Shown: positions 3,087 to 26,461 of the stretch, piece by piece | How the letters are laid out: each line of letters begins with the position of its first letter | Numbering within the stretch: position 1 is the first letter of the stretch | Notes under the pieces: model-generated | What the model was told of the DNA's origin: nothing | What the model saw: the letters and a program-made list of their open reading frames with translations, nothing else | Databases searched by the model: none | Source of the DNA: an uncultured Chloroflexia bacterium | Lineage (GTDB): Bacteria > Chloroflexota > Anaerolineae > JAAYZQ01 | DNA: 64,000 bases | Assembly: GCA_963783445.1 (NCBI GenBank) | Contig: CAWANP010000015.1 | Span: 216,666-280,665, forward strand | Reading direction: 5' to 3' | Position numbers and translations under genes: made by a program

Positions 3087-3194
3087 GCATCATCGACGGG
3101 GAATAATCGTCCACTCCCTGAGGAATGGTGCAGCCTGGGGTGTCGACTTGCCATTTCGGGCTGGCCGTACGGTTGCTGCTTCGCCCTGAAGGCA

Positions 3195-5000: not shown

Positions 5001-5060
5001 CGAAGGCGTTCCGTCTCAACGGACTGAAGCCAGGACCTGCCGGCTCCAGATAACTCACTG

Positions 5061-5459: not shown

Positions 5460-6046
5460 GGTTGATGACCCCTTTCTGTATCCATGGTGCAACTTTGACT
5501 GGAGATCAACCCGTGGGGGGCGTTCTCCTATCCCATCCACTGCGAGAATCTATGCTCTGCAATCTCTTTTCAGAACCATCCCAAGCCGCACCTCCACATG
5601 GTCCTGCTCGTGACCATTATAGACCCAAACGAGCGACTTGTCAAGTTAAAGCAAGATAAAAATGATTATATTTATGGTGAGCGATAGGATCTTCTCCTGA
5701 ACTTGGGGCAGATGACCGATCGTGAGAGTGGCATGGCTCCCTCGCTGCCTACCATCTACTTGGTTGTGCTACTCGCGAGGTAGTTGGCCGATCACCTGGA
5801 ACGTGTTGAGGATCCTGTCAAGCGCTTCAAGGTCCGCTTCGCTAGCGATCTGAATCTGGAGCCAGATCAGGTATGATTGGTCCTCCGGTACGGCAGCCAG
5901 ATTGAGGAAATCACTGCCCTCCCCACCGCAATTGGCATAGTGATCGTACAGACCTGTGTGGGCAGCGTCTTGATACTCTTTGCGTCCTTCGTACTGGCAG
6001 TCGCCAGAGAAATCATACTCCTCCAGGTTCAGCAGTCCCTCTCCCG

Positions 6047-6928: not shown

Positions 6929-6941
6929 GCTGGATACGGCC

Positions 6942-7439
6942 TTACCCGTGGTGGTCTGTTGAGACTGCGTCGGCCTCGGCTGGCACTGGGGTTGGCGCCT
7001 CGAGGGCGCCGCCAGGCCCGACTACCTCAAACCCGTAGGTTCCAGCGGGAGTCCCATTGACGTACAGCCTCGCCTCATACTCGTTGCCCACAGGGAATGG
7101 GTCGTCGGGGGTCAAAGTGAAACCAACGAGGGTGTTGCCGCCAACCATGAAAATGAGCCCTTCCTCTTGCCACAATTCTGCCAGATCAAGGCTGACCTCG
7201 GTTATCTCCTGGTTCCCATAGATAAAGCGTACACCCACCACGCCCTCTCTGGGATTGCCATCGAGGGTGGCCGAAAGATGGACTGTCTCCTCGGGCAGAA
7301 ATTCGCTGCCTGGATCGATGGGCTCCATCTGTTCGCCCAGACTGCGGGCATAGGTGGCATCCAGGATCTCGGGAGGCCCTTCTGGTTCGTCAGAGCCGCC
7401 ACCACAGGCCGCGACCATCAGGGCCAGAACCACGGGCAT
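6942..7439 (-). CDS. Lipoprotein of unknown function, possibly the N-terminal part of the disrupted protease gene
   Basis: Lipobox-like N-terminus MPVVLALMVAACGGGS. It ends 14 nt before the protease fragment, in another frame. Confidence 0.4.
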   Translation of the reverse strand: MPVVLALMVAACGGGSDEPEGPPEILDATYARSLGEQMEPIDPGSEFLPEETVHLSATLDGNPREGVVGVRFIYGNQEITEVSLDLAELWQEEGLIFMVGGNTLVGFTLTPDDPFPVGNEYEARLYVNGTPAGTYGFEVVGPGGALEAPTPVPAEADAVSTDHHG

Positions 7440-7454
7440 TACCGCCCCGTTTCC

Positions 7455-7898
7455 TCAATTGTCCCCTGCTTCTAGCGGGTAGCCGGCCGCATTCCAGGCT
7501 GCCAGCCCGCCCTCTAGCGCGTAGACTTGGGCCGGATCCGTTCCCTCTTTGATCACTGTCAGCGCCGCACGGGCGCTGGTCTCTTCAGCCGGTCAAGTTC
7601 AGTAGAAAACCAGTGATTTGTCGGCCGGAAGCTCAGCGGAGCGCGCGGCTGCCTCGCCAGCGGGGAAAGAGATGGCTCCAGCTGCGTGGGCCTGCTGGTA
7701 TGCGGCCTCAGAACGGGCGTCGTAGATCAGTGCATCGCCGCTATCCTGCAGTGCCTTGGCGTCTGCCGCAGTGATGCGCTGGATATCGTCAGCACTCTCC
7801 ACCACAACCTGCGGCTCGGTTGCGGGTGCAGAGCTGCCGCAAGCGGCCAATGCGAGGACTAGGCCAGTCAGGACCATCGATACAAACCATCTGTTCAT
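7455..7898 (-). CDS. Rhodanese-like sulfurtransferase lipoprotein with two in-frame TGA codons at the catalytic loop. It is a candidate selenoprotein (UxU); a pseudogene is the alternative.
   Basis: Lipoprotein signal MNRWFVSMVLTGLVLALAACGSS, then a rhodanese fold (...DALIYDARSEAAYQQAHAAGAISFP...KSLVFY). TGA occurs at the complement of 7599-7601 and 7593-7595. The same frame continues PAEETSARAALTVIKEGTDPAQVYALEGGLAAWNAAGYPLEAGDN to a stop at 7455-7457. Confidence 0.5.
7560..7578 (-). ncRNA. Candidate SECIS-like hairpin (CAGCGCC-CGUGC-GGCGCUG) 17 nt downstream of the second in-frame UGA of the rhodanese gene
   Basis: Perfect 7-bp GC stem with a 5-nt loop containing G and U. Its position is in the range typical for bacterial SECIS elements, but it is unverified. 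Confidence 0.3.
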
Positions 7899-7996
7899 TT
7901 GCAGCTCCTTCTTTAGACTGGAGGGGACCCGATCTACTCTGAGGTCTCCCGATCTAGAATCTTCTTCTTCGGCGCATATGCGGGCGGGCAGCCCTT

Positions 7997-8488
7997 TCAT
8001 AGAGCGCTGCGCGCAGCAGTATGGCTACCCCCTGCATTCGTCTCAGCGCCCGCCTGCACCCCCTCCAGGCCAAGCTCCCGCGCCTGATCGCAGAGGTCGG
8101 CAAGGGTGATGGAATCCAAGAACTCTGCCATTGTCGCCGATAGCTGCATCCACAGGTGATGCGTTACGCAACACTCTAGTCTGTGGCAGGGGTCCTCTTG
8201 TACGGGCAGGACGCAATCCACGACGGCAATGGGACCCTCCGCGGCGCGTACTATTTCGCCAATGCGGATCAATCCAGGATCTCGGGCGAGGATATAGCCA
8301 CCGCGCGGTCCTTTGACACCTAGTACCAGCCCGGCGTTGCGAAGTTGCTGGAACAAATGGGCCACATAGTCGGACGAGATCTCCTGCCGAATTGCCAGCT
8401 CATGGCGCGGAACAGGTTCCGCAGAGGCGTGCAGCGCCAGGTCAAGCATCGCTCGCAAGGCGTAGCGCCCGCGCGTTGAGACCTTCAT
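7997..8488 (-). CDS. Rrf2-family transcriptional regulator (IscR/NsrR-like, Cys-containing)
   Basis: MKVSTRGRYALRAMLDLA wHTH N-terminus plus a Cys cluster CVLPVQEDPCHRLECC. Confidence 0.8.
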   Translation of the reverse strand: MKVSTRGRYALRAMLDLALHASAEPVPRHELAIRQEISSDYVAHLFQQLRNAGLVLGVKGPRGGYILARDPGLIRIGEIVRAAEGPIAVVDCVLPVQEDPCHRLECCVTHHLWMQLSATMAEFLDSITLADLCDQARELGLEGVQAGAETNAGGSHTAARSAL

Positions 8489-8524
8489 CATGCGACTCAC
8501 TCCCCCTTTTCCCTATTATACAAT

Positions 8525-8545
8525 AGTTGAGGATTTGTGTCAACT
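8525..8545. promoter_or_regulatory. Inverted repeat AGTTGA-N9-TCAACT immediately upstream of the Rrf2 gene; possible autoregulatory operator
   Basis: Perfect 6-bp arms read directly from the sequence. It lies between the Rrf2 start and the YibE/F gene end. Confidence 0.3.
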
Positions 8546-8678
8546 TCTCACCTTCAGGGCCAAGCTGGCCACGGGCTGGCTTGGAACACAAGGCCGAAGG
8601 AATAGTTCCCTTCAGGGAAGAGTCTGCCCAGGCAGTAGGGGGCTGGTGGCCTCGACAGGGTGGAGTCCTTGAGCGGGA

Positions 8679-9812
8679 CTAGGGTCGCTGCCGGGCGATG
8701 AACACTGCCAGCGCGGTCGTCAGGGGCACGCCGGCCAGCAGTCCCAGGCTGCCCACCAGCGTCCGAACGATCTCCTCAGCGACAATTTCCCGATTGAGAG
8801 TGATGCCCAGCGATTCAGCAAAGACGGTGAACAGAAGCAAGAGTGGCAGCGATGCCCCTACATAGGCCAGGAAAAGCGTGTTGACCATGGCCGCGATATG
8901 GTCTCGACCTACGGTCATCCCGTGCGCAAACAGTTCTCGCCAGCCCAGGGCAGGATTGGCCTTGTTCAGTTCAAAGATGGTTGACGACTGGCCCACAGCG
9001 ATGTCGTCCAGAGCCCCCAGCGTGCCAATGATAATGCCGGCCAGCAATAATCCCTGCGTATCAATCTGAAAGCCGGCAGTCTGGAGAAAGCTCGCCTCCT
9101 CGGCGCCAAACCCAGATAGCCGTGTCCAGTGGACCGACCAGAAGGCCAGCAGTCCGGTGAGGACAAGGGTGACGAAAAGCCCGGCCACGGCAACGTGGGT
9201 TTTTCTATTCCAACCATAGACCAGGTAAAGGCTGACGCCCATCATCACCACGGAGCCGGCGATGGCGACCAGTACCGGATTCCACCCGGCCAGGATACGG
9301 GGTACGATGAACCCGACGATGACAAGGAGGCTAAAGCCCATGCCCAGGAGTGAGCGCACCCCCTGCCGGCCGCTGAGTACCACCGTAGCTACTGCGAATA
9401 GCAGGGTCAGCCACAGCAATGGTCCCGTGCGAACAAAGTCACCGACGAGAAAGACGTGCTCGCCCTCCAGCGTGACGGCGTGGTCCACCAGCACCCGGTC
9501 ACCCGCTCGGAGCATGCGGCTCTCATTGGTAAAGCTTAGCAGGCCATGCTCAATCTCGATTTCCTGACCGGCCAGTGGACCGCCAGACAGCCGCAGCAGT
9601 AGTCGCTGGTAGGGCTGCTCGAATTCACCCTGGCCAATGGTTCTTTCTTCGAGCACTTTTATGACTGAGGCACGGATCGTCTCGCTTTCACCGGGCGCGA
9701 GGCTGGCTGCGGGGTTGAGTCTCTGACGCCCAGCAACGGCGCCCAACAGCACAAGAATGGCGACGGCGATAAGCGCCACAACAAGCCACCATATCCGGTT
9801 CGATCGCAGCAT
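8679..9812 (-). CDS. YibE/F-family integral membrane protein
   Basis: Multi-TM protein with a GALDDIAVGQSS segment typical of YibE/F. The likely start is MLRSNRIWWLVV. Confidence 0.55.
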   Translation of the reverse strand: MLRSNRIWWLVVALIAVAILVLLGAVAGRQRLNPAASLAPGESETIRASVIKVLEERTIGQGEFEQPYQRLLLRLSGGPLAGQEIEIEHGLLSFTNESRMLRAGDRVLVDHAVTLEGEHVFLVGDFVRTGPLLWLTLLFAVATVVLSGRQGVRSLLGMGFSLLVIVGFIVPRILAGWNPVLVAIAGSVVMMGVSLYLVYGWNRKTHVAVAGLFVTLVLTGLLAFWSVHWTRLSGFGAEEASFLQTAGFQIDTQGLLLAGIIIGTLGALDDIAVGQSSTIFELNKANPALGWRELFAHGMTVGRDHIAAMVNTLFLAYVGASLPLLLLFTVFAESLGITLNREIVAEEIVRTLVGSLGLLAGVPLTTALAVFIARQRP

Positions 9813-10044
9813 GTGGGTCAACCTATTCCGAAGGATGGCAGTGTGCCAGAGTGTAGCACATGGCTGAGAACTGGCCAAGTTTCACACTGTGTAGCAACAT
9901 GCATCACTTCTCTACTCAGTAAACCGTTGCCTGGCCTGTCAAACTGTGGTAAGATAGGGTAACTCAGGAGGTGCGGACCGGTACCGTTGGGGTAAGATAG
10001 GTCCAGCTACCAGGGGCAGTACAGACGGGCCGCCGGAGGCCAGG

Positions 10045-13000
10045 ATGCAGGCAAGGCTTTCTCTCAGTCTTCGATCTTTGGTCCTGCTCACAACCCTGCT
10101 CGCCGCCATGCTGTTGGCGGCGGCCTGCAGTAGCACTGCGATGCCCGCGACGCCTGTCCCTGGGGTTCCAGAAGCTACTCCCGGTTCGCGTCTCCGCTTA
10201 CCCGGCCCAGAGGGGCGGCGCCCCCCTCTGGGTACATCACTCAGGTTCGACCGCTACTCCATCGACAATGGCCTCTCTCAGAATTCGGGCAACAGTTTTT
10301 TCCAGGACAGCACAGGATACATCTGGATTGGCACAGAGGATGGGCTGAATCGATTTGATGGGTACGAGTTCCAGGTTTTCAGGCAGGACCCCGGTGACCC
10401 GGCCAGCTTGAGCAATAACCACATCAAGGCTATTGTTGAAGGTTCATCGGGCCTTCTCTGGATTGGGACCTACGGCGGTGGGCTCAATTCGCTGGATCCA
10501 GAGACGAATCAGTTCAAGCACTACCGGAAAGTGCCTGATGATGCCAATAGTTTGAGCGACGATCAGATCCTATCCTTGCTTCAGGATAACCAAGGCATTC
10601 TCTGGATCGGCACCCGAGGAGGGGGCCTCAACCGCTTTGAGCCTGAGACAGGGGAGTGGCGCCGCTTTCAGCGCCACTCGCAGGATCCCGGCAGCCTGGC
10701 CAGTAATGACGTCACCGCGCTGTTCGAGGATTCATCAGGGGTCCTCTGGGTTGGAACCAGCAGCGGACTTGACCGCTTTGACCGCGACACATCAACTTTC
10801 CATCATCATGCGCATGACCCTGCCGATCTGACGAGTATCAGCGGCAATGTGATCGCTGCAATTGGTGAGGACCAGGGAGGCGACCTGTGGGCCGGCACGG
10901 CTGGCGGAGGCTTGAATCGTCTGGATCGGGAGACTGGGTCCTTTGTACACTTTCGGCACGACCCCGATGACCCCTGGAGCTTGAGCAGCGACATTGTTAG
11001 TTCACTGGCCATAGACAGATTCGGGGGACTCTGGGTTGGCACTGACGATGGACTCCATCGCTATGATCAGGATCTGGATGGGTGGCGACGCTACCAGCAT
11101 GATCCCGGTGACCCGCAAAGCCTGAGTGACAATGGTGTTGCAGCGATTCTCCCGGATCAGTCTGGCGGGATATGGATTGGCACCTCAGGCGGTGGCGTGA
11201 ACCGGTACGATTTGCAGATGGACCAGTTTGCATTGTATCGTGCGACCTCAATTGGCGGTGAGGGTCTGAGCGAGAGTACCGTGTGGGGACTTGTTGAGGC
11301 TCAAGATGGTACACTGTGGATTGGGACCGACGGTGGCGGGCTCAATCGCTTCGATAGAGGAGAGCAGAAATGGACCCAATACCGGCATGATCCGGATGAT
11401 CCTCAGAGCTTGAGCAGCGACGTGGTTGTTTCCGTCTACGAAGATCGGTCGGGCGAGCTCTGGTTGGGTACCTGGGGTGGCGGGCTCAACCGATTTGACC
11501 CGAGTACAGAAGATGGACAGAAGGCTCGCTTCACCCGCTATCAATTCGACCCGGCTGACCGTCATAGCCTGAGCAGCAACGTTGTCTGGTCGATCCATGA
11601 AGATCGGCAGGGCATGCTTTGGGTTGGCACGGCCTTGGGGCTGAACGCCTTGGATCCAGAGACTGGGCAGTTCACCCGCTACTTTCACAGCCCGGACGAC
11701 CCGCACACACTGAGCGACAATGATGTGGGTTCCATTCTTGAGGACCGGGAAGGCAACCTATGGTTTGGAACCCATTCGGGCCTGAACCGGCTTGTGCCCG
11801 CAGCGGCAACCGGTGGCGGTCCGCCCCAGTTTACGCGCTACCAGCATGATCCTGAGAATCCTGAAAGCTTGAGTCACGATATCGTCTTCTCGATCCACGA
11901 GGACCGGGCGGGAAAGCTGTGGCTCGGAACCTGGGGTGGTGGACTCAACCGCTTTGACCCTGAGACTGAGAGTTTTGTCCATTACCGGACCAGGGATGGG
12001 CTGCCGAATGACGTGGTGTATGGGATTCTGGAGGATGCGACCTCAACGGATTCGGATACTGTTCCTGGGGATGGAGGCGACTATCTGTGGCTGAGTACCA
12101 ACCTTGGTATCACCAGGTTTAACCCTCTCACTGAGACGTTTCAGAACTATGACGCAGGTGATGGTCTTCAGAGTAACGAGTTCAACTTTAACTCCTACAC
12201 TCAGAGCAGTAGCGGTGAGTTATTTTTCGGTGGGATCGATGGCTTCAACTCTCTCTTCGCCGAGGGTGTCCAACCGAATTCGTTTGTGCCGCCTGTTGTT
12301 CTGGTGTCGTTCACTCAGGGCGGAAAAGGTGTTGAACCTGCCGTGGTTCCCGGAGCGCCGCCAGGTGTGACCCTGGAATGGCAGAACAATGACTTTGAAT
12401 TCTCATTTTCCGCGTTGAGCTACTTTCAGCCGGAGAAGAACGAATTCGCCTATATGCTGGAGGGGTATGATGATGGCTGGAACTATGTGGGAACCAGGCG
12501 TTATGGTAGCTATACCAATCTCCCTGGCGGCGACTATACTCTCAGAGTGAAGGGCGCCAACAATGATGGGCTCTGGAATGAGGAAGGAGTTAGCCTGGCG
12601 GTCCGCATCGTGCCTCCGTTTTGGGCTACGTGGTGGTTCTGGGCTTTCGTCGTGGCTGCGCTCGTTCTGGCCGGGGTCGGTGCGTACCGTCTCCGGATCC
12701 GTGGCATCGAGGCGCGCAGCCGTGAGCTGGAGACTGAGGTGGCGACTCGAACCAAGGAACTGGCTGCTCTCAATGCAATCGCGGCCGTGGTCAGCCGCTC
12801 GCTAGATCGGGATCAGATCCTGTCTGATGCATTAACCAAGACCCTGGAGGTCACAGGGCTTGAGGCGGGTGGGATCTATTTGCTCCAGTGGAACAGCCTG
12901 CAGGAAGACCAGCCCAGTGTGGACGGGCGGGTACTAAAAATTGTGGCCCACCAGGGTCTCGGCGCTGAGTTTGTGGCCGCCATCGACAATTTGATGGTTG

Positions 13001-14925
13001 GCGAGGGGTTTTCCGGTCGTGTAGTACAGAGCTGTGATCCCATGGTCGTCTCCGACCTGGATAAGGACCCCAGACTGACGCGCTCGGTGGTCACGGCTGC
13101 CGGTTTCCGCTCTATCGCCATCGCGCCTCTGGTTTCACGGGCCGAGGTGCTCGGTTCCTTGTTTGTCATGACTCGGGTACTCACCAGCTTTTCTCACGAG
13201 GACGTGGACCTCTTGACTGCCATTGGCGGCCAGATAGGCGTTGCCATCGAAAACGCGCACTTTTTTGAGGGCGAGCAACGCCGCGCCGAGCAGTTCCGCG
13301 TGATCAGCGAAGCAGGGCACCACCTCGCCTCCATCCTCGACGCAGAACAGCTGATGGCCGAGATCGTAGGCCTAATCCACGAGACCTTTGGCTACTATGA
13401 GGTCGGCATCGGCCTCATTGAGGGTGATGATCTGGTGATCAAGACCTCGTCGGGAATCCGTTGGCAGGATCTGGAGGGCCCCCCGGTTCGGATCCAAGTG
13501 GGCGGCGAGGGATCCATGGCCTGGGTGGTGGAAAAGGGCCAGCATTTGCTCATCCCCGACGTGAACAGCGACCCCCGCGATTCTTTCTGGCCCCACACCG
13601 CCAGAACTCTCTCAAGCCTGGCTGTGCCCCTGCGGACCAAATCTGGTGTCATTGGGGTACTGAACGTCGAGAGTGACCAGGTGAAAGCCTTTGACGACAG
13701 CGACGTGATGGTCCTCCAGTCTCTGGCCAACCAGGCCGCTATCGCCATCGACAATGCCCGCTTTTTGGAGGCAGAGCAGCGCCGTGCCGAACAGTTCAGG
13801 ATTCTCGCCGAGGCAGGGCGCCGGATGACCCTGACCCTGGAGATCGACGAGGTATTACAGCAGATGGTGCGGCTGGTTCAGCAGTCCCTGGGCTACTACC
13901 ACGTGGCCATCGGCCTGATCGAGGAGGATGAGGTAGTCTACCGCGTGGGCGCAGGGGTTCTGTGGGACGATCCGGATTTTGATTTCAAACCCTCTCGCTT
14001 GAAAGTAGGGGAGGAAGGCATCACCGGCTGGGTGGCTCTCCGGGGTGAATCGCTCATGGTATCGGATGTCAGCGAGGACAGTCGCTACGTATGGATGGGA
14101 GGCAGCAAAACTTCTTCAGAGCTGACGGTGCCCATTGTTGTCAAAGAACAGGTCATCGGCGTGCTTGATGCCCAGAGCGACCAGCCTGGCGCCTTTGACG
14201 AGACCGATCTGTCGGTGCTCCAGTCAGTGGCCCATCAGGCCGGCGCCGCCATCGAGAACGCACGACTGTATGAGCAGGCCCAGCAGGCAGCGGTGCTTGA
14301 GGAGCGGGGCCGCCTCGCCCGGGACCTGCACGACGCGGTGACCCAGACGCTCTTCTCTGCCAGCCTCATCGCTGAGGCCGTTCCTGCTACGCTGGCGATG
14401 GATGAGGAAGAGGGGCGTGAGTTGCTTCACGAGTTGCAGCGGCTGACGCGAGGGGCGCTGGCCGAGATGCGTACCTTGCTGCTGGAGCTGCGTCCAGCGG
14501 CCCTCATGGAAACGAGTCTGAATGACCTGATCCGTCAGTTGGCGGCGGCCATCGCCGGGAGGGCGGGCGCGCCTGTGGAAATGACCGCGGAGGGTGAATG
14601 TATGGTGCCCCCGGAGGTACATGTCGCTCTCTACCGCATTGCCCAGGAGGCGCTGAACAACGTAGTCAAGCACGCCCGGGCGACCCAGGTGATGGTGGAT
14701 CTCCGCTGTGGCCCCCTGGATGGTGGGCAGACTTTGGGCCAGCGTGTCGAGATCCGCATTCAGGATACCGGGCGCGGTTTTGACCCTGACAAAGTCTCGC
14801 CCGAACACCTGGGCCTGGGTATCATGCGCGAGCGGGCGCAGGCGATTGGGGCTCAATTGACCGTAGAAAGCCAGCCAGGAAAAGGAACTATGGTGACCGT
14901 CGTATGGGAGCCAGAAGGAGTATAG
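10045..14925 (+). CDS. Giant sensor histidine kinase: signal peptide, ~14 two-component-regulator propeller repeats, Y_Y_Y domain, TM helix, three GAF domains, HisKA_3 and HATPase_c
   Basis: 1626 aa. Repeated GLWIGT/GLNRFD motifs are followed by a TM segment WATWWFWAFVVAALVLAGVGAY and then GAF signatures. An H-box LARDLHDAVTQTLF (NarL-type HisKA_3) and the ATPase G-boxes follow. There is no receiver domain. Confidence 0.9.
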   Translation: MQARLSLSLRSLVLLTTLLAAMLLAAACSSTAMPATPVPGVPEATPGSRLRLPGPEGRRPPLGTSLRFDRYSIDNGLSQNSGNSFFQDSTGYIWIGTEDGLNRFDGYEFQVFRQDPGDPASLSNNHIKAIVEGSSGLLWIGTYGGGLNSLDPETNQFKHYRKVPDDANSLSDDQILSLLQDNQGILWIGTRGGGLNRFEPETGEWRRFQRHSQDPGSLASNDVTALFEDSSGVLWVGTSSGLDRFDRDTSTFHHHAHDPADLTSISGNVIAAIGEDQGGDLWAGTAGGGLNRLDRETGSFVHFRHDPDDPWSLSSDIVSSLAIDRFGGLWVGTDDGLHRYDQDLDGWRRYQHDPGDPQSLSDNGVAAILPDQSGGIWIGTSGGGVNRYDLQMDQFALYRATSIGGEGLSESTVWGLVEAQDGTLWIGTDGGGLNRFDRGEQKWTQYRHDPDDPQSLSSDVVVSVYEDRSGELWLGTWGGGLNRFDPSTEDGQKARFTRYQFDPADRHSLSSNVVWSIHEDRQGMLWVGTALGLNALDPETGQFTRYFHSPDDPHTLSDNDVGSILEDREGNLWFGTHSGLNRLVPAAATGGGPPQFTRYQHDPENPESLSHDIVFSIHEDRAGKLWLGTWGGGLNRFDPETESFVHYRTRDGLPNDVVYGILEDATSTDSDTVPGDGGDYLWLSTNLGITRFNPLTETFQNYDAGDGLQSNEFNFNSYTQSSSGELFFGGIDGFNSLFAEGVQPNSFVPPVVLVSFTQGGKGVEPAVVPGAPPGVTLEWQNNDFEFSFSALSYFQPEKNEFAYMLEGYDDGWNYVGTRRYGSYTNLPGGDYTLRVKGANNDGLWNEEGVSLAVRIVPPFWATWWFWAFVVAALVLAGVGAYRLRIRGIEARSRELETEVATRTKELAALNAIAAVVSRSLDRDQILSDALTKTLEVTGLEAGGIYLLQWNSLQEDQPSVDGRVLKIVAHQGLGAEFVAAIDNLMVGEGFSGRVVQSCDPMVVSDLDKDPRLTRSVVTAAGFRSIAIAPLVSRAEVLGSLFVMTRVLTSFSHEDVDLLTAIGGQIGVAIENAHFFEGEQRRAEQFRVISEAGHHLASILDAEQLMAEIVGLIHETFGYYEVGIGLIEGDDLVIKTSSGIRWQDLEGPPVRIQVGGEGSMAWVVEKGQHLLIPDVNSDPRDSFWPHTARTLSSLAVPLRTKSGVIGVLNVESDQVKAFDDSDVMVLQSLANQAAIAIDNARFLEAEQRRAEQFRILAEAGRRMTLTLEIDEVLQQMVRLVQQSLGYYHVAIGLIEEDEVVYRVGAGVLWDDPDFDFKPSRLKVGEEGITGWVALRGESLMVSDVSEDSRYVWMGGSKTSSELTVPIVVKEQVIGVLDAQSDQPGAFDETDLSVLQSVAHQAGAAIENARLYEQAQQAAVLEERGRLARDLHDAVTQTLFSASLIAEAVPATLAMDEEEGRELLHELQRLTRGALAEMRTLLLELRPAALMETSLNDLIRQLAAAIAGRAGAPVEMTAEGECMVPPEVHVALYRIAQEALNNVVKHARATQVMVDLRCGPLDGGQTLGQRVEIRIQDTGRGFDPDKVSPEHLGLGIMRERAQAIGAQLTVESQPGKGTMVTVVWEPEGV

Positions 14926-15119
14926 CAGGGGAGGAGGGCGTGACGGATGTCTTGACCAGGTATCTGGCCTCAGTCGCACGTCGGTTGGACGTCAGACCGG
15001 AGTCAAGTTGTAGCAGCCAATCCATGCTACGATGCCAATCACAGAATAGAGCATTCGATTGGGACTGGTCCTGATCATCGGGATCCAGGGCTGGGCCAAG
15101 TATCGCAAGGAGGCGAAAA

Positions 15120-16073
15120 ATGGACTTTGGAAAAGTGTTGGGCCGCGCTTGGGAGATCACCTGGCGCTGGAAGATCCTCTGGATCCTGGGCTTTCTGGCA
15201 AGCCTGGGCGGCGGGGCCGGTTTCGGCGGCAATTTCTCATCCACAAACAGCGGTGGGGATCTGAGCCAATGGCCCGGAGAAATGCTCGGACCCGGTTTCT
15301 GGGCAGCCATGACTGGCATCATCCTGGCCCTCGTGTGCCTGGGATTGCTTGTGGCCATTGTCGTGTGGGTTCTATCCATCATCGCCCGGGGTGGGTTGAT
15401 AGCGGGCGTGCAACAGGTAGAGGAAGAGGGCAGCACGACCTTTGGTCAGGCTTGGCGCGCCGCTGCCAGCCGCTTCTGGACGCTGTTGGGCATCTCTTTT
15501 CTGGCGATGCTTCCCTTTCTCATCGTGGGGTTCGGTCTGGCCATGGTGGCAGCTGCCGGCGTCCTGGTGGCGATGGGAAGTTCTAGCGGCTTCGGTGACC
15601 CGGCTCCCGGTGGCATCATCGCTGCCATTGCCTGCGGCACGTTGTTCTGTTGCGGCCTGTTTCTCGTGGGCATCGTTCTTGATCAGATCCGGACCTACGC
15701 CGAGCGGGCGGCTATTCTGGAAGGACTGGGCTGGATCGAGGCATTCAAGCGGGGCTGGGAGGTGCTAAAGGACAACCTAGGGCCGACCATCATCCTCTGG
15801 CTCATCTTTTTGGCCCTTGGATTGGTCCTGGTCGCAGCCATGTTTGCCGGGATCGCGGCTGTCACGTTGCCCCTTCTTGCTGTCACTGCCGCGGTCGAGC
15901 CGGGCCTCTGGCTAGTTGCACCGGCTTGCTGTGGGGGTCTACTGGCCTTGATAGTCTTTGCGCTGGTTGGGGCCGTGATCGAGACCTTTACTTCGGCTAC
16001 GTGGACGCTGGCTTATCGCGAGTTGACCGGTATTGCGCCGGAGGTGCCTGCGCAACCCGCGCTCGAAGGATGA
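15120..16073 (+). CDS. Hypothetical polytopic membrane protein (DUF)
   Basis: 317 aa, several hydrophobic helices, Gly-rich. Confidence 0.55.
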   Translation: MDFGKVLGRAWEITWRWKILWILGFLASLGGGAGFGGNFSSTNSGGDLSQWPGEMLGPGFWAAMTGIILALVCLGLLVAIVVWVLSIIARGGLIAGVQQVEEEGSTTFGQAWRAAASRFWTLLGISFLAMLPFLIVGFGLAMVAAAGVLVAMGSSSGFGDPAPGGIIAAIACGTLFCCGLFLVGIVLDQIRTYAERAAILEGLGWIEAFKRGWEVLKDNLGPTIILWLIFLALGLVLVAAMFAGIAAVTLPLLAVTAAVEPGLWLVAPACCGGLLALIVFALVGAVIETFTSATWTLAYRELTGIAPEVPAQPALEG

Positions 16074-16139
16074 TCGGGCTGAAGCGGACTGGCGGCCCTT
16101 CTCAGGGCTGCCAGTCCTTGTCTTCCCCCAGGGTCATGT

Positions 16140-17570
16140 CTACTCCCAGCCCTTGGTGAATCCACGGTCGCCGGGCACGATGCCCAACTCCTCACGCAAT
16201 TGCAGGCATTCCCGTTCAAACTCACTCACCCGCTCGCGCAATTCGGCAATCTCGCTCGGGACTTTCTTGCCGGCATCACCCAGCAGATTCTGAATCTCGG
16301 TAGGATCGCTTCGAAGATCGTAGGCCTCGTCTCCATAGTCGGGGTCGCGCACATAGGAGTGGTCCACCGTGCGGGCACCCTGCAAGAGGCTAGGGTGTCG
16401 GCCAGCGGCTGGCATGCCCGTGGGGTAAGTGGTCCCCAGGTGGCCGTGGTAGTCGCCCACCTGGGCAAAGAGGCAGTCGCGCAGCGGTTCCTGTGCCCCC
16501 TCCTGCACCCAGCGGATCAAGTCATGCCCTTGGGCATAGTCCGGGACCGGGATACCGGCGATGCCCAGGATCGTCGGGAAAAGATCGATGGCATTGACCA
16601 GGCCTGGGACTGTTTCGCCGCGCAGGGGTAGCGCTCCGGATCCTGCGGGCGGTACAATGATCAGCGGTACGTGCAGCAGGCACTCGTAGAGCGATTCGGT
16701 TTTGGCAAACATCCCCTTTTCGCCCGCATAGTCGCCGTGATCAGAGCCGATAATGATCCAGGTATTCTCCAGCAGATCATGTTCGCACAGCGCTTCGAAG
16801 ATGCGTCGCATCTGATCGTTGGCGTTGGCAATCATGCCATAGTAGATGGCGATGAGTTGCCGCATGTCGTCCTCGCTGGCGAGATCGGTCCTGCCTTCCT
16901 GATGAACGGTGAGCTGCCAGTCCGGCTGCTCGCCCTCTGCCGGTAGTACTGGCAATTCGACGTCAGCCGGGTCTACCAGGGTGTCGTAGGGCGGCGGTAC
17001 GAAATAGGGCGGGTGCGGGTCGTCAATGGCCACGTGGAGGAAAAAGGGATCGTCCGGTCTGCAGGGCCGCGTCCAGCATTTGGATGGCGCGGGTGGCGAT
17101 CAGGGCGGAATTGCCCTCCTCAGCCGTGCTGTCGATGGCGCCAGATGACCAGGCATAGTCCTGGCGGCCAGACGCGTACTTGGCCCGCATGGAGCGGTAC
17201 AGCGGCCCAGGTTGCATGAAGGAGATCTGCTCGTGCCAGCCACGGGTCAAGTTCCGCTGCTGCTCATAGTGCCCGATCACGGCCGTATAGTAGCCGGCGC
17301 CTGCAGCAGCTCGGAAAGCTGGGGCAGGTTGTAAGGCGCGCGGTTCTGGTGGCATGTTACCTGGTGGACCAGGGGGTGGACCCCGGTGAGGACCGAGGTC
17401 CGAGATGGGGTGCAGATAGAGCTGGCAGAGTAGGCATGGGCAAAGGCCACGCCCTGGCTCGCCATTTCTTCCTGGAAAGGACTGGGTACCACGGGGTTGC
17501 CATGGATGCTACAGGCCGACGCTTTCTGTTGGTCCGCCATGAGATATACGATGTTTGGACGGCGCTCCAT
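16140..17570 (-). pseudogene. Sulfatase (arylsulfatase family) split into three ORFs by two frameshifts
   Basis: The N-terminal fragment carries the formylglycine motif SICTPSRTSVLTG. The middle (17023..17355) and C-terminal (16140..17033) fragments continue the sulfatase fold in other frames. Frame breaks fall near 17030 (the ggaaaaaggg run) and ~17300. Confidence 0.7.
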
Positions 17571-17991
17571 TGCATGCCTCCTGTGAAACTGGTCTTCGGC
17601 TATGATACCATAGAATCAGCCGCTGTCCAAGAGACCCCGATGGTGCTACCCAGGCCAGACCTTCGAGGTGTCCCAGAAGAACCAGCCGGCACTGCCCCTG
17701 CAGGGGGTTCGGGATTCACAGAAACCCGCGCAGGGCGGAGGAAAGACTTGGAGGGCTTGGATACTCGCGCTTGTGCCTGGCATCACGAAATGGCGGATTG
17801 TCCAGCTTTCCTGTCTGTGCTATAATCAGCGCGCAGCAGGACTCCTGGCGGAGCTGGCGGCTGCGGTTCAGGAGCAGGCAATGGGCGAACAGCTTGAGGT
17901 GGTCGCAGAGTAGTTGATGGAGGCGTCATGATCTCGAGAGGACTGAGCCCTCGTCCCGAGATGGACGGCAGGGGCTGCCGGGAAGGGTAAC

Positions 17992-20804
17992 GTGAACACG
18001 CTGCTCGTAACGACCAAGCTTCACATTCCTCTACCCCGCCCGGAGCGGGTCTACCGTCCCCGCCTCTTGCGGCGGCTGGAGGACGGCTTGAGCCAGGGCC
18101 ACCGGCTGGCCCTGGTCTCTGCCCCGGCTGGCTATGGTAAAACGACGCTGCTCGCTGAATGGGTGCGGCGCGGCGATCGACCAGTGGCCTGGGTTTCACT
18201 GGACGCCGGTGACAACGACTCCGTCCGCTTTTGGTCGCACGTCGCTGCCTCCCTGCAAAAGATCCACGCAGGGGCCGGCGAACCAGCGCTGGCGGCCCTG
18301 CAATCTCCCCAGCCACTTCGCGTCGAGGCTGCTTTGACAGCCTTGATCAATGAGGCCGATGCTATCCCAGAGCCCTTTACCCTCGTCCTCGATGACTATC
18401 ACCTGGTTGACGCAGGGGAGGTGCATGGTGCTCTCAGTTTCCTGCTCGAGCACCAGCCGCTCAACATGCATCTTGTGATCTCTACGCGTTCCGACCCTCC
18501 CTTGCCCATCTTCCGCCTGCGGGCCCGCAGTCAGTTGACCGAACTGCGCAATGAGGATCTTCGCTTCTCGCCTGACGAGGCGCTTGCCTTCCTGAATACG
18601 GTGATGAGCCTGGACCTGACCCGGGAGGATGTTGCCTCACTGGAGGCTCGTACCGAAGGTTGGATCGTTGGTCTACAGCTCGCTGCGCTTTCCTTGCAGG
18701 GCCGTGCGGATACGCAGTCCTTCATTGCTGCCTTCACGGGCAGCCATCACTATGTGTTGGAATACCTTACCGAGGAGGTCGTGCGGCGCCAGCCAGCGCC
18801 GATCCGGCAGTTTCTGATGCAGACGTCGATCCTGGATTGTCTGAGTGGACCGCTATGTGATGCGGTCCTGGACGGGGGTGTGGGACGAAAGATGAGGAAG
18901 CCCAGAGATCCAACCTCGACGATTTGTCCGTCGTGCTTGGGCCTTCGCCGGCGGGCGAGGAGATTCTGGCTTACCTTCAACAGCAAAACCTGTTCGTCGT
19001 TCCCCTGGATGACGAGCGCTGCTGGTACCGCTACCATCATCTGTTCGCTGACTTGTTGGCCAACCTCTTGCGCAAAGAGTGGCCCGTAGAGCATAGCCGC
19101 AAGTTGCACAGGCGCGCCAGCAAATGGTACGAGGAGCATGGCATCCCGGACGATGCCATCAAGCATGCCATACAAGCCCAGGCTTTCGAACGGGCAGCAT
19201 CGCTGATCGAGCAGTCCGCCCAGGCCGCCCTGGCGCAGGGCAGAGTCATGATGCTGCTTGGCTGGCTGGGGCCATTGCCAAATGCGGTGCTGCGCTCCAG
19301 ACCGCGCCTCTGTCTTTACCAGGCATGGGCGCTGCATCTGAGCGGGCAGTCCCGCGCAGCCAACGAGATCCTGCGGAGCGCGAGACGAGTGTTGCAGTCC
19401 CTACCGCCATCCCACGAGGATGAAGGGCTGCGTGGCCAGCTGGCTGCCCTGCTCACCAGCATTGCCATGCTTCACGAAGAACCATCTCAGATTATTGCAG
19501 AAGCCAGGGAAGCTCTGACTTTCCTCCCTGAGGAGGACTCTGTCTCGCGCGCCAGGGTGCACGTGGCGTTGGGCACAGCCCATGCCTACGAGGACGAACC
19601 AGAACAGGCTGCAGAGGCGTGGCGACGGGCCAGTAAGCTGGCACTCGAGGCCGCCAATCCCTTCTTGGCTACAGCCGCTATCGAGCTCCTGGCCGGCATG
19701 CAGATCTACCATCAAGGCCGCCTGCGGGAGGGTGCCCGGACCCTCCAGCAGGTGTTGGATCTGGGGACCACACCGGCTGGTTTGCTTCTTCCCTTCACTG
19801 CGACGGCACATGCTTTGCTGGCAGAAATCTACCTGGAATGGAACGACCTGGATGCCGCTGGCATCTATCTGGAGAGGGGGATTGAGCTGCTGCAGCGGGG
19901 GGGTATCGCCTATGGTATGACCCATACCTACTGCGCCAAAGCGCGTCTCGCGCGAGCGCTGGGCGACCGGCAGGGGCCATAGAAGCGCTTCAGGCGGCAA
20001 GGCGGGCTACCGCGAGCACACCCCATGTGGCACATGATCCTCCACCAGGCATCCTGCCAGACGCGGTTGAGCCTGTGGCTAGGTGATGTGACCGGGGCAG
20101 AGCGGTGGGCCAGCGCCGACCCGGCAACCGTCGAATGTGACCTGCCTGACAAGCTTCCGTGTTATTTGCGTGAAGTTCAACAGATCTCGCTGGCGCGGGT
20201 GTGTCTCGCCAAGGGTGAGGTAGACGATGCCCTGGAGATGCTAGATACGCTGCTTCTGGGAGCTGTGTCAGCAGGCAGGGCGGCGCACGTCGTTGAAGTC
20301 AGCCTGGTGAGGGCCCTCGCGCTGCGAGCACAAGGCAAGATCTGCGCAGCTATGAAATCGCTCGAGACTTCGCTATCAATGGCTGAACCGGAGGGGTATG
20401 TACGGACATATCTGGAAGAGGGCGAACCCTCGCGCCTACTAGTCTCAGAATTTCGGTCTCTGAGCCTGGCACAATCCCGAAAAACTCCGGTTCAGGTATC
20501 TCGTCCCCTGCTGAGATACGCTGATAGACTGTTGGCTGCATTCTCGCACACCGAGACGGAGATAGCTTTGCCACTCACCGAGACGCCGACAGCTAGAATC
20601 CAGAACCTAGTTGAGCCCTTGACAGGACGGGAACGGGAGGTACTGCAACTTATCGGCAAAGGGTACACGAACCAGGAAATTGCCGCGGCACTGGTCGTTA
20701 CCGTGAATACGGTGAAAAAGCATGCAAGCGGGATCTATGGCAAACTGGGCGTGCGCAGCCGTACCCAGGCGGTGGCACGTGCCCGCGATTGTGGGCTACT
20801 ATAG
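17992..20804 (+). pseudogene. MalT/LuxR-type large ATP-dependent transcriptional regulator (AAA ATPase, TPR-like region, LuxR HTH) with at least three frameshifts
   Basis: Walker A SAPAGYGKTTLL; central LFVVPLDDERCWYRYHHLFADLL; C-terminal LuxR HTH EREVLQLIGKGYTNQEIAAAL..VNTVKKHASGIYGKLGV. The ORFs 17992..19089, 18924..19982 and 20025..20804 are in different frames. Confidence 0.75.
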
Positions 20805-20865
20805 AGACTCCCACATCGTTGGCTGGACCTCTTTCCAGTTGCAATCGGGTAGGCCGTCCTGGATC

Positions 20866-21192
20866 TCACTCGTTGACGACGATGGTCACGCCGAATCGAT
20901 CCTGGATGCTTGCATCCCCTTCCCATTCGCACCAGTGCTTCAGGCTGATCTGCACACTGCCGGTCGCTTTGGTCCGGAAGGTCAACACACGCTCTCCTGG
21001 ACCACCAAAGAGGGGCTCAGTTGGCAGCTCAAAGTCGTCGCGCTCCAGCGCCAGAATTCCTGGATCCGTTTCGGTAGGTGCCCACGTATAGGGGGTTGCT
21101 CCGTTCTCCTCGAGGCGCACCTCGATCAGATCACCCCGATTCACTTCAAAGGAACGGCTATTGTCGCCACGTGTCACGTTCAAGACTGACAT
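20866..21192 (-). CDS. Chagasin-family (I42) cysteine-protease inhibitor
   Basis: 108 aa with the ATPYTWAP core matching the I42 NPTTGY-W loop. It lies in the same operon as the C1 peptidase. Confidence 0.65.
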   Translation of the reverse strand: MSVLNVTRGDNSRSFEVNRGDLIEVRLEENGATPYTWAPTETDPGILALERDDFELPTEPLFGGPGERVLTFRTKATGSVQISLKHWCEWEGDASIQDRFGVTIVVNE

Positions 21193-21369
21193 CTCTTCTG
21201 CTTCTCCCTCGCTACCGTTCCAGCCTGAGGTTTCGATCGGACCAGAGCGGGACTGAAGTGCTGGCGGGGGAGGCTCTTGCGATCCCCCGCCAGCATCAAT
21301 CAGTACGACACTGATCCGTAGCTCTGAAGTGGCTGGGCGTGGAGACGCCCAGCCATCCGTACCCTCTGG

Positions 21370-21720
21370 TCAGAAGGTTTTGACGCATCTCACCTGGGTC
21401 AGTTGGTTACCGGTATCCCAGCACACAAGGATTTGGTCGGCTGCCATAGCTACCTGTACCAGGCCAGCTTCCTCGGTCGCGGTCACGTTTCGGTAGCGCC
21501 ACGAACCGCCAGCATAGGCCAGGATGCGTCGAAGCGGTGAGGTAAAGTAGCGATCCATCATCAAGTGCTGCGCTGTCCCGCAACCGGCAGCTGCAGACAA
21601 GGGCCCCGCGGCTTCCATACTCAGCTCTGTTGGCAGTGGCCCGATCTCTGCCAGCCACGGCTCGATCGATGCCTCTGCTTCTTCCATCTCTGCCAGTAGA
21701 TCCGAACCGAACTCGTACAT
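21370..21720 (-). CDS. Small protein with the unassigned ~60-aa domain (GCG.AQHLM...AYAGG.WRYRNV...LVCWD.GNQ...RCVKTF); paralog of the 23012..23367 product
   Basis: Full-length pairwise similarity to the second small ORF and to the C-terminal extension of the C1 peptidase. The likely start is MYEFGSDLL. Confidence 0.5.
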   Translation of the reverse strand: MYEFGSDLLAEMEEAEASIEPWLAEIGPLPTELSMEAAGPLSAAAGCGTAQHLMMDRYFTSPLRRILAYAGGSWRYRNVTATEEAGLVQVAMAADQILVCWDTGNQLTQVRCVKTF

Positions 21721-21816
21721 GTCTACCTCCTGTCCTCGTTTCGACCAGATCGGCATCGCTGCCAGAACCCGCGCTAGGGTGTCTTGATCGCGCGGACCAT
21801 GGTCAGCTTGTTGCCG

Positions 21817-22888
21817 TCATAGCAAGCCACGACTCGGTCGGCAGCAAAAGAGATCTTGGGCAATCCCCACCAGTTCAGCATCGCCGACGATCCGGTGGCG
21901 CCATGCGCTATCGACGTATGCCCACAGAACCACGCCACCGCCAAACTGCTTCTGGACCATCAGATGTTTGGCCTGGGCACAGCCTTTCTCGGGCTTGACG
22001 TCAACACTCACAGAGTAGAAGGCCCAACTGCTGTCGATCAGCAGCTTGCTCTGACCGTAGGCAAGGCGGAAGAAGCCAGCCTCACCCCAGCCTGTCCCCC
22101 AGCTGTTTTTGCCGATCCAGCATCCTGCGCTGTCATCGTAGCCGACGATGCAGATGCAGTGGTAGCCACGCAGAGTCGCTGCGTTGCTCACACGGTACAC
22201 GCCACTCTTGTACGCAGAAAAGTCGTTGTAGACTGCCATTCCTGCGACACCGGCCCGATAGACGAAATGGCCGTTTTGCGGGCCTCCATCGTGCTGTGGG
22301 CCTGAAAGCCCGTGATTTTTGTCAGGCGTGATTGCCAGTTGCTGCACCGGTCACTACACGGCTGATTTCGTGGCTGATAGGGAAAGCATGCATCGTCTGT
22401 CACACCAGTACTTTTGGCGTAGGCCAGACCCGACGTCAATCCCCAGCCGCTGCAGCTTCCACCTCCGCAGAACTGCATAAAGGCCTCTGACAGATCCACG
22501 GCCTTCTGGTGATTGTTGGCTTTGATACGGATGTTGGCCTCAATCGTGGCGCACGTCCCAAAGGAGACGCAGGACCCACAGCCTCCCTGGTTCTTGACCG
22601 GGGTCACATAGTTCTTTCCGTTCACATTCCGCCAGTCCCGTGCCGCAGGGGCAGCTACGGGCGCCCGCACCGTAAAGGCGCGCTTCTCTTCCTCGGCAAG
22701 CGCCTTGGTCTCGGCCGCCATCGCCCTCAGCTCTGCCCGGGTGGCGAATCCACGCCCAGGTACTTGTCCTTCTCCTCGATGGGAAGCGCCGTGAGTGTGG
22801 TTTCGCCTGGGACCCAGCCCAGGTTCTCCTCTTCGACTGCCGCTTTTATCTCAGGCACCGATAGGATCTTTTCTACCTTCTTGGCCAT
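21817..22888 (-). CDS. Papain-family (C1) cysteine peptidase with a C-terminal extension domain; interrupted by about two frameshifts
   Basis: DWR..VTPVKNQGGCGSCVSF (Cys-box), GYHCICIVGYD (His-box) and NSWGTGWGEAGFFRL (Asn/Trp box) are spread over the ORFs 22727..22960, 22188..22721 and 21817..22347. No signal peptide. Confidence 0.7.
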
Positions 22889-23011
22889 TTTACCCTCCGT
22901 GGTCCCTCTGGAAAGAATCCTGCAAGCACTGTACTCGCGACTTTGCCCTTGAAGGCACAATCTGAGAATGGCCGCAGCTGGCTGCTGGGCCTTCTCGATA
23001 TGGGTGGTTCG

Positions 23012-23367
23012 TCAGAAGGTTTTTACGCATCTCATGAGCGTTATCTGATTGCCGGCATCCCAACACACCAAGACTTGGTTGGATGCAAAGGCTACCTGCA
23101 TCAGGCCCGCCTCTTCCGTGGCAGTCACGTTCCGGTAGCGCCATGCGCCTCCTGCATAAGCCATTGCCCGCCGCAGTGGGCTGGTGAAATAGTGATCCAA
23201 CAGTACATTCGTAGCCGCAGCACAGCCTCCCGCTCCCAGTACCGGATCACCAAACTCCGGAATGGCAGCCTCGGTTGGCAGCATCGAGCCAGCGGCTTCC
23301 AGCGTCGCTCGAGTGCTGCTTGCTCCGCATCCAACTGCGCCCAGATCTCTGCACTGATCTCAGACAT
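23012..23367 (-). CDS. Small protein with the same unassigned domain (paralog), with one frameshift
   Basis: The N-terminus MSEISAEIWAQLDAEQAALE (frame of 23125..23367) aligns with the paralog N-terminus. The C-terminal 90 aa are in the frame of 23012..23284. Confidence 0.45.
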
Positions 23368-24116
23368 TGATTGCCTCCTTTGCCTCGTACTTTGAGATGG
23401 ATACCAAAACCTGCACGGGTAACACGGATCTGATCGCTACCACCCCCTTTCTCCGTCAGAAGTGGGCATCCTGACCTGTAGCCTGGGCTTGATCAGAGTG
23501 CTCACTAATCCATGTGGCGGGCTACCACCAGTTTATGCCAAGGCGAATGGCCGGCGCAGAATGGGCAAGGCAGTCTCGTACCCAATATCTGACGCAAGGC
23601 GCTGGGCCGAATCGCCCATGTGCTTTGGCGGATAGCACGCTCAGGCCGTCCGGAAGGGGCTGGATAGCCGGTTGCTTGTGGGTCCTGGCTGCGTAGCGGT
23701 ACCTTGCTCGCTGAGAGCTACGATGACAGGTATAGCGAAGCAGAGTGGCACGGAGTGGAGTGTTGTTGTCTACAAGTCCTGCGATGAGGGCAGTGTTGGA
23801 AGGGACCCCTCCACGTTTCATTATACCATATGTCAAAAGGCTTGTCAATACCGAAATTCTCTTGGCAGTGTATCATTTCAGGTGAAAACTCTGCTTGTAC
23901 AGGCGTCAGGTTTCCTGGCGGTAGCCTACACTTTTGGGTAGGGTATATGCTGATGCACCTCTGACAAACCTTATACTCTCGTGTGCTGACAGGGAGCCGC
24001 CAGCCGGCTATACTACGGCCACGAGGGCTGGTAGGTGGCCTGTCTGATCCCGACATACCGGCCTGACAAGTAGGTGATGCCCTTGGCCCTTCAGATTCCC
24101 GGACCGGCGACCACTT

Positions 24117-25583: not shown

Positions 25584-25613
25584 CAGGGATCGCAAGTGAC
25601 AAGGAGGGAAGAC

Positions 25614-26461
25614 ATGAACAGAATCTTGGTCCTCGGTGGAACAGGAATGTTAGGCGCCCCGGCTGCCCGCCGGCTGAAGGCCGATGGCTTTGCAGTGCGG
25701 CTGATGGCACGTGATCCGGAGAAAGCCGGGGGCGTGTTCGGAGAGGGGTTTGAGATTGTTGGTGGCGACGTCGCCGACCCTGCCAGCCTGGAGTTGGCGC
25801 TGCAGGGTTGCGAAGGTGTGCACATCAGCGTCGGTGGCCCGGTCGATCAGCTCAGTGCCGAGAACGTCGCCGCCCTGGCCCCCGGACTGGGTTTGGCGCG
25901 CATCACTTATGTCTCCGGCTCGACCGTCTGTGAGGAGAACGGCTGGTTCCCGACGATCAAACAGAAGCTGGTGGCGGAAGAGGCCATCCGGGACTGTGGC
26001 GTGCCCTACACCATCCTTTGCCCCACCTGGCCCATGGAGCAGTTGCCGCGCTTCGTCATGGGTGGCCGGGCAGCCATCTGGGGCGAGCAGCCTACCCCTA
26101 TCACTGGTTCGCGGTGGAGGACCTTGCTACCATGGTCTCAAACGCCTACCAGCGGGAAGAAGCTGCCAACAAGCGGCTATACGTCCATGGGCCGGAAGCC
26201 ATCCGGATGCACGAGGCGCTGGAGCGCTACTGCCAGGGATTCCATCCCGAGATCGAGGCCGTCGCCGTCGTGCCCATCGACGCGGCCCGGGGAATGGCTG
26301 CCTCCAGCGGCAGCGAGATGCTCACGTACTTTGCTGAGCTGATGGCCTACTTTGACCAAGTTGGCGAGTTGGGCGATCCGGCCGAGGCCAACCAACTCCT
26401 TGGCGCGCCGGAGACTACATTGGACGCCTGGATCCAGCAGAGAAGAGATGCTGGCCGATGA
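25614..26461 (+). CDS. NAD(P)H-binding NmrA/SDR-like oxidoreductase (frameshift near 26095)
   Basis: Rossmann motif LVLGGTGMLG. The C-terminal part continues in the ORF 26018..26461. Confidence 0.7.

Follow-up and report, generated by a model that had tools for sequence, protein, structure and literature searches.

What does a small protein domain do when it occurs three times around a single papain-family (C1) cysteine peptidase, once fused to the enzyme and twice on small proteins encoded beside it? This question is raised by a four-gene locus (positions 20866 to 23367) in a 64,000-nucleotide stretch of contig CAWANP010000015.1 from an uncultured Chloroflexia bacterium, the whole of which is referred to here as the window. 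A first-pass annotation made from the sequence alone had placed on the minus strand, in this order, a small protein A, a papain-like peptidase, a small protein B and an I42 chagasin-type inhibitor, and had left unassigned the domain, here called X, that the first three share. The four genes, read from the six-frame translation of 20780-23480, lie in that order, with Pfam PF00112 identifying the peptidase and PF09394 the inhibitor. Here, we describe the homology, predicted structure, genomic distribution and sequence classes of X, and we consider whether its fused and free forms may act as a docking pair. The features of the locus are listed below with their coordinates in the window; those called repaired contain reading-frame breaks.

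23012..23367, minus strand: small protein A (helix, linker, X), ATG at 23367, stop at 23012, 118 amino acids once repaired.
23015..23233, minus strand: free-type X domain of A (AGGCAAATNVLLDHYF...RCVKTF), hmmsearch with the domain profile E 1.7e-37.
21774..22888, minus strand: C1 papain-family peptidase with C-terminal X, ATG at 22888, stop at 21774, 371 codons once repaired.
21777..21987, minus strand: fused-type X at the peptidase C-terminus (KGCAQAKHLMVQKQFGGG...MVRAIKTP), split over two frames at about 21850.
21370..21720, minus strand: small protein B, intact, 116 amino acids, ATG at 21720, stop at 21370, identical to P0001.
21373..21591, minus strand: free-type X domain of B, hmmsearch E 6.7e-38, modelled by AlphaFold2 with a predicted local distance difference test score (pLDDT) of about 90.
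20866..21192, minus strand: I42 chagasin-family inhibitor, 108 amino acids, Pfam PF09394.

The three copies of X, each of about 70 amino acids, are homologous, and their likeness is not an artefact of composition. B and the repaired peptidase extension align with a BLASTP E of 3e-15 (41% identity over 70 amino acids), and A and B with an E of 2e-47; the two small proteins are 55% identical overall and, counted from the alignment, about 70% identical over their last 71 or so residues, the figure that had been read from the sequence at first pass. Smith-Waterman z scores for the peptidase extension are 26 against B and 23 against A, and comparisons among X domains overall lie 15-55 standard deviations above 2000 shuffles. 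Because none of the 2000 shuffles reached the observed score, compositional bias, the concern raised in the first-pass annotation, does not account for the similarity, and the count of one fused and two free copies stands. The extension quoted there was correctly held to be homologous to the domain of the small proteins, but it ended in out-of-frame residues ('...DLFCC'); the end of this third copy ('FAADRVVACYDGNKLTMVRAIKTP', followed by the stop codon) sits in another frame and is visible only after the last repair.

X is a real and very rare domain. A search of 5.8 billion proteins with the peptidase extension alone gave no match, within the word-index limit of that search. A single-sequence search of 5.8 billion proteins found six relatives only, a profile built from fused and free X found 91, and exhaustive HMMER searching of 1.84 billion cluster representatives gave only 47 clusters at E <= 0.001. 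X has no match in Pfam, NCBIfam, PDB sequences, PADLOC or PHROG, in keeping with its first description as an unassigned domain. In PADLOC, even at E <= 0.1, there were no matches for six proteins (the four of the cassette, and a Kelch protein ending in X with its small X partner, described below), and PHROG gave none either. Pfam at E <= 1 found nothing in the 371-residue peptidase besides PF00112, and in particular no PPC domain. The X profile also matched parts of very large repeat proteins (SUEL-lectin/Sushi, RTX/cadherin), weakly and in multiple stretches, and these matches were judged unrelated. These proteins (P0127, P0129 and P0133-P0135; E 3e-7 to 3e-4), one of which is 5384 residues long with 20 matching stretches, probably share a beta-hairpin motif with X rather than ancestry.

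An AlphaFold2 model of B, run with 48 homologues, opens with an N-terminal helix of low confidence (residues 6-25), from which a disordered linker (26-42) leads to the compact X domain (46-113, pLDDT about 90). The X domain has the order b1-b2-b3-alpha-b4-b5, with strands at 46-57 (bent), 64-70, 73-79, 96-101 and 106-113 and the helix at 81-93, and the fused X has the same order in a full-length peptidase model of moderate confidence (pLDDT 75.7). X is thus predicted to be a beta-barrel of about 70 residues with the topology of the oligonucleotide/oligosaccharide-binding (OB) fold. The first-pass annotation had held that a match to a common fold of established function would count against its proposal; the predicted fold is indeed a common one, but it provides no link to a family of known function. 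A structural search gave no significant match to any specific OB family (E >= 0.23), and the best neighbours were OB domains that bind single-stranded DNA or RNA, or sugars. Across relatives a Trp, an Arg and a Lys of X are invariant and a Tyr is nearly so. By residue count, the N-terminus of B carries a charge of about -10 and its X domain is net basic. The free-X proteins as a group are about 117 amino acids long and combine a conserved acidic helix, a variable flexible linker and a C-terminal X; the linker has about 15 residues at its shortest and is an extended MGP(Y/D)R repeat at its longest. The extreme is a metagenomic small X protein of 178 amino acids (P0125), whose linker is a long MGPYR/MGPDR tandem repeat. 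The junction of the peptidase to its X domain shares with the small proteins the start G(S/C)G-x-AK(H/Y).

The cassette, consisting of a small X protein, a C1 peptidase with X, an optional second small X protein and an I42 inhibitor, recurs in every related locus with enough sequence; the gene neighbourhood, whose conservation in relatives had been proposed as a check, is strongly conserved. Two metagenome contigs carry A (118 amino acids), peptidase (370) and B (116), and B followed by I42 (108). Psychromonas ingrahamii 37 has a cassette of 117-368-117-109 amino acids, in which Ping_1672 is the second small protein. The cassette is also found in metagenome-assembled genomes (MAGs) of Desulfobacteraceae and Gammaproteobacteria, and an Acidimicrobiaceae MAG contig contains the small protein and the start of the peptidase before the contig ends. 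An I42 gene is present in every C1-type locus that reaches past the second small gene (the window, L005, L006, L010, L012, L020 and the P0003 contig; L and P numbers denote related loci and proteins). The cassette is conserved across bacterial phyla, horizontally scattered and cytoplasmic. It varies in two respects, and the genes concerned are these:

L005, 6324-6677 and 8001-8354: small genes flanking the peptidase.
L010, 4208-4663 and 5860-6354: small genes flanking the peptidase.
L020, 2521-3621: pseudo-peptidase with X, between small B and I42, with Cys to Gly, His to Thr and Asn to Lys.

The first variation concerns the second small gene. It is missing from the cassette of a Gram-negative MAG (119-370-114), and at least one lineage can do without it. 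The identity between A and B is 90% in Psychromonas (counted from the sequences) and only 55% in the clade of the window, and in a Desulfobacteraceae MAG the X domains of the small genes are identical. Because this identity varies with lineage, the second copy seems to have arisen, or to be homogenised, repeatedly; the pattern points to recurrent duplication, or to gene conversion between the direct repeats on either side of the peptidase gene. The second variation is the five-gene form in L020, in which an active peptidase with X is joined by a paralogue that lacks the catalytic Cys, His and Asn and has kept X. Similar dead forms are P0113 and P0120.

X is not confined to peptidases. In Actinomycetota (Sinomonas, Pseudonocardiales and several MAGs) it ends a protein of about 530 amino acids composed of a Kelch propeller and a galactose-oxidase-like E-set domain, and the next gene encodes a 129-residue protein with the helix-linker-X layout. 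No I42 homologue was detected in these Kelch-type loci. In every informative locus a free-X protein adjoins a fused-X protein. At two Sinomonas loci (L015 3918-4706, L016 6182-6994) an ordinary C1 peptidase without X follows the small X protein, which hints that X pairs are recurrently linked to C1 peptidases even in the Kelch-type cassette. In Sinomonas sp. ASV322 (L015 1641-3914) the Kelch-X protein and the small X protein share one stop-free open reading frame (ORF) that contains X twice, which may reflect a natural fusion or the loss of a stop; the genes are separate in S. terricola (L016).

The relationship between the two forms of X was examined in an alignment of 32 X domains. A neighbor-joining tree splits free from fused X first, irrespective of the type of enzyme, and two single-residue indels are diagnostic of the classes. 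Free X is marked by the motifs DHY, TSSxRR, EEQG and RCWK, and fused X by D(K/R)x, GGG, (D/E)LxG and R(P/G/A)WK. The fused X of the window scores 182 against a Kelch-fused X and 138 against its own neighbour B. Since tree, indels and scores all divide by class and not by enzyme type, fused and free X appear to be ancient paralogous classes that travel as a pair. Furthermore, because the pair occurs on Kelch proteins without an inhibitor and a dead peptidase keeps its X, the role of X is not tied to proteolysis. This, in turn, narrows the roles suggested at first pass (regulatory, decoy or substrate module, or a conflict or maturation system): the decoy and dedicated protease-substrate roles are weakened, and a module of general use in docking or assembly is favoured.

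The identities of the two remaining partners are secure. Once repaired, the peptidase matches PF00112 with an E of 1.7e-42 (146.4 bits, cutoff 20.7), and both of its fragments in the window match the family separately. It keeps the oxyanion-hole Gln and the catalytic Cys (NQGGCGSC), His (GYHC) and Asn (KNSWG), which are invariant columns of the alignment and also align with cathepsin C, and a GGAGGG ribosome-binding site lies upstream of its ATG at 22888. The inhibitor matches PF09394 with an E of 1.8e-17 (63.8 bits, cutoff 27.2), and its residues 5-105 match Trypanosoma cruzi chagasin (2fo8) with an E of 1.2e-5. The three binding loops of chagasin carry the motifs NPTTG, GxGG and RPW; the positions aligned to these loops in 2fo8 read ENGATPYTW, FGGPGE and KHWCEWEG, related but diverged. 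None of the four cassette proteins has a signal peptide as read from sequence, and the small proteins, described at first pass as about 120 amino acids long and lacking one, have 118 (repaired) and 116 amino acids with acidic, helical N-termini. A lipoprotein reading of the sequence LSAAAG|C was dropped, as the N-terminus is acidic and not hydrophobic and most relatives have Ser, Tyr, Gly or Asn in place of the Cys. Matches of the small proteins to Pfam DUF3131 were below the cutoff (E 0.04-0.09) and were treated as noise.

Is the cassette of this genome intact? As encoded in the window, only B and the inhibitor are. The first-pass annotation was right about the C1 identity of the peptidase and overlooked that its gene is not a single ORF, being spread over three frames, as well as a break that spreads A over two. 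The lesions were placed by DNA alignment to the intact metagenome loci L001 and L003 (75-79% nucleotide identity):

Near 23308 (A): one base missing relative to orthologues (GAG-CG versus GAGCCG), a 1-nucleotide deletion that splits A into MSEISAEIWAQLDAEQAALE... and ...MLPTEAAIPEF...RCVKTF with its stop.
Near 22751 (peptidase): two extra bases or, equivalently, an extra codon minus one base in a C run.
Near 22249 (peptidase): one base missing (GGT-GTC versus GTGGTC).
Near 21850 (peptidase): one extra T within a T run.

Intact orthologues have a peptidase of 370 amino acids and an A protein of 118 (P0005/P0006, L001 349-705). The repaired peptidase has 371 amino acids and no internal stop, and is 76-84% identical to its closest full-length relatives (P0117, L001 and L003, 370 amino acids). 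Public gene calls hold only a 140-residue fragment of it (P0059), and the locus calls for caution in annotation, since single-base indels hide the key peptidase gene as a single ORF in the window.

We consider errors of a long-read assembly the somewhat more likely origin of these indels. All four are single-base length changes at short homopolymers, and judged by codon usage about 21 more junctions across the 64 kb are candidate frame switches, part of which may be ordinary overlaps between neighbouring genes. A sister contig from ENA, L019 (87% nucleotide identity, syntenic with window 2551-17617 and then divergent), also has split genes and bears a generic 'contig_NNNN' name of the kind that long-read assemblers give; a GAF/Y_Y_Y protein of 1626 amino acids (10045-14925) that is intact in the window is split there into 340 and 1290. 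The competing explanation, that the cassette is a decaying pseudogene cluster in a strain-variable island, with at most B and the inhibitor functional, is somewhat less probable. It would account directly for four frame-disrupting indels in A and the peptidase, and several observations speak for it and against assembly error: the four lesions fall within 1.6 kb, and a 4.9-kb ORF 6 kb away is intact; the adjacent MalT-like regulator carries both a frameshift and an in-frame TAG; the lesions cluster in few genes (three in the peptidase, two in the regulator and at least three in a TPP enzyme), and ORFs of 1626, 776 and 601 amino acids are clean; and synteny with L019 ends at about 17617, a short way ahead of the regulator and the cassette. 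Because synteny stops there, the segment of regulator and cassette may be a strain-variable island. Against decay, the repaired frame is free of stops, keeps all catalytic residues and is 76-84% identical to its orthologues, and the combination of homopolymer indels, window-wide candidate frame switches and split genes in the sister contig is typical of long-read consensus errors.

The surroundings of the cassette can be described briefly. The MalT-like LuxR regulator gene (AAA_16, TPR_MalT and GerE domains; 17992-20804, plus strand) converges on the 3' end of the inhibitor gene and is broken into three ORFs, with a frame change near 18900-19090 and the TAG at 19980-19982. At least four frames are needed to read a thiamine pyrophosphate (TPP)-dependent enzyme (46522-48159, plus strand), and two for an NmrA-like NAD-binding protein (25596-26461, plus strand); both genes are among those with candidate frame-switch junctions. 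The 177-nucleotide gap between B and the inhibitor holds two GC-rich hairpins, perfect in a stem scan:

21259-21295, no strand assigned: hairpin with a 13-bp stem.
21330-21355, no strand assigned: hairpin with an 11-bp stem.

Both lack a T-run, and neither is called as an intrinsic terminator. They may serve in processing or stabilising the transcript, or be a kind of terminator that lies outside the model of the scan. A promoter and terminator scan gave matches only at the level expected by chance, and tRNA and Rfam scans of the window gave none.

What, then, might X do? Because fused X and free X fall into separate clades whatever the type of enzyme, we propose that they are a heterotypic docking pair that tethers small adaptor subunits to cytoplasmic enzymes, and we put the probability of this reading at roughly 0.4. 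The fused X would dock on the free X, OB to OB, as in known heteromeric OB assemblies. The enzyme, together with its dead paralogue where there is one, would thereby gain one or two small adaptor or regulatory subunits, each contributing its conserved acidic helix on a flexible tether, and the I42 protein would hold the cysteine peptidase inactive in the cytoplasm. This proposal is consistent with a pair that is co-inherited, always adjacent, independent of enzyme chemistry and retained by a dead enzyme. Against it, the identity margins between the fused and free classes are modest (0.44-0.46 versus 0.38-0.42), and the conserved W, Y, H, R and K residues of X would equally fit the ligand-binding surface of an OB domain.

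The small proteins could instead be dedicated substrates or precursors, recruited through X-X docking or by simple recognition, with the enzyme cutting or modifying the linker near FGAAG(S/C)G and so freeing the helix peptide or the barrel. A disordered, variable linker between two conserved parts is what such a substrate might look like, the peptidase/X junction has the same G(S/C)G-x-AK(H/Y) start, and an inhibitor in the cassette is expected of a tightly controlled processing enzyme. We nonetheless regard this explanation as unlikely: the same pair is found on Kelch/galactose-oxidase-like proteins, which are not peptidases, the catalytically dead paralogue keeps its X, and the alignment reveals no conserved cleavage-site residue with a hydrophobic P2 across both types of cassette.

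Alternatively, X may be an OB-type module that binds a ligand such as nucleic acid, oligosaccharide or some other polymer, so that the enzyme and the small proteins would meet on one and the same intracellular ligand with no direct contact between X domains, and the acidic helix at the N-terminus may imitate this ligand and thereby autoinhibit the basic barrel. The OB-like topology with its nearest structures, the invariant Trp, Arg and Lys with the near-invariant Tyr, and the opposite charges of the N-terminus and X domain of B are all compatible with this idea. It leaves unexplained, however, why there should be distinct fused and free classes, co-inherited and always side by side, and no ligand-related genes are conserved near the cassettes; we judge it about as improbable as the substrate explanation. 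An AB5-toxin-like or secreted-protease arrangement, with X as a receptor-binding ring or a cleavable C-terminal pre-peptidase domain, is very improbable, given that no signal-peptide-like N-terminus is present in the four window proteins or in the Psychromonas and Actinomycetota members read, that the N-termini read are acidic and not hydrophobic, that no secretion genes are conserved nearby, that the PPC domain of Pfam is not matched and that the structural scores are not significant (E >= 0.23).

Compared with systems already described, the cassette is familiar at its core. Chagasins are regarded as natural inhibitors of prokaryotic C1 peptidases (PMC2784779, citing Rigden et al. 2002), and here likewise one cluster encodes an I42 protein together with a C1 peptidase whose catalytic set is complete, a pairing that points to endogenous control of the enzyme. 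Prokaryotic C1A peptidases that are intracellular and lack signal peptides have also been noted (PMC10380794). Unlike known C1-chagasin pairs, the cassette adds a C-terminal barrel to the enzyme and includes, as fixed members, one or two small proteins that carry this barrel as well, and in some cases a dead paralogue. An accessory barrel of the X type is mentioned in neither PMC2784779 nor PMC10380794; the main text of the latter, a survey of the papain family, makes no mention of chagasin, domain architecture or Psychromonas, and a literature search for the locus tag from Psychromonas gave no paper. Among solved structures, cathepsin C (dipeptidyl peptidase I) is the closest relative of the catalytic domain, with residues 80-287 only aligned (E 7e-38); X (residues ~300-371) has no match among PDB sequences. 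Cathepsin C, too, is an oligomeric enzyme of the papain fold with an acquired domain (PMC10380794), but that domain, the exclusion domain, is N-terminal and unrelated to X.

Among the structural neighbours of X are the heteromeric OB assemblies RPA32-RPA14, Stn1-Ten1 and the editosome OB proteins, which resemble it in being small barrels with a helix between strands 3 and 4 and in having paralogous OB domains on different chains. In those assemblies the paralogous domains pair, as is proposed here for X. In the cruzipain-chagasin system of Trypanosoma cruzi, an endogenous chagasin controls a papain-family peptidase that likewise bears a C-terminal extension, one whose function is unclear. The cruzipain extension is longer, however, and was not recovered by any X profile search, and there are neither free-standing copies nor an operon. 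In the cassette described here, a peptidase-inhibitor cluster is extended by a paired accessory domain that had not been described.

X is a new domain family with two subclasses, fit for a database entry. One lineage of intracellular papain-family peptidases is always accompanied by small proteins that share a domain with the enzyme, and the same pair has also been transplanted onto an unrelated class of enzyme, a regularity across two enzyme classes that was unexpected. A bolder version of the docking proposal, which we regard as unlikely, is that fused and free X are a hitherto unrecognised two-part docking system, similar in logic to cohesin and dockerin, that would bolt acidic-helix adaptors onto cytoplasmic enzymes; the C1 cassette would then be an inhibitor-gated multi-subunit protease complex, which could comprise an active peptidase, a dead peptidase, two adaptors and a chagasin. 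If this were true, a new kind of regulated intracellular proteolysis or of conflict system would be possible. The roles of bacterial intracellular papain-family peptidases and chagasin-type inhibitors are largely obscure, and the cassette provides a concrete hypothesis of docking between fused and free X. Psychromonas ingrahamii 37, with a complete 4.56-Mb genome, carries an intact copy in Ping_1672 and its neighbours, and experiments on it look feasible.

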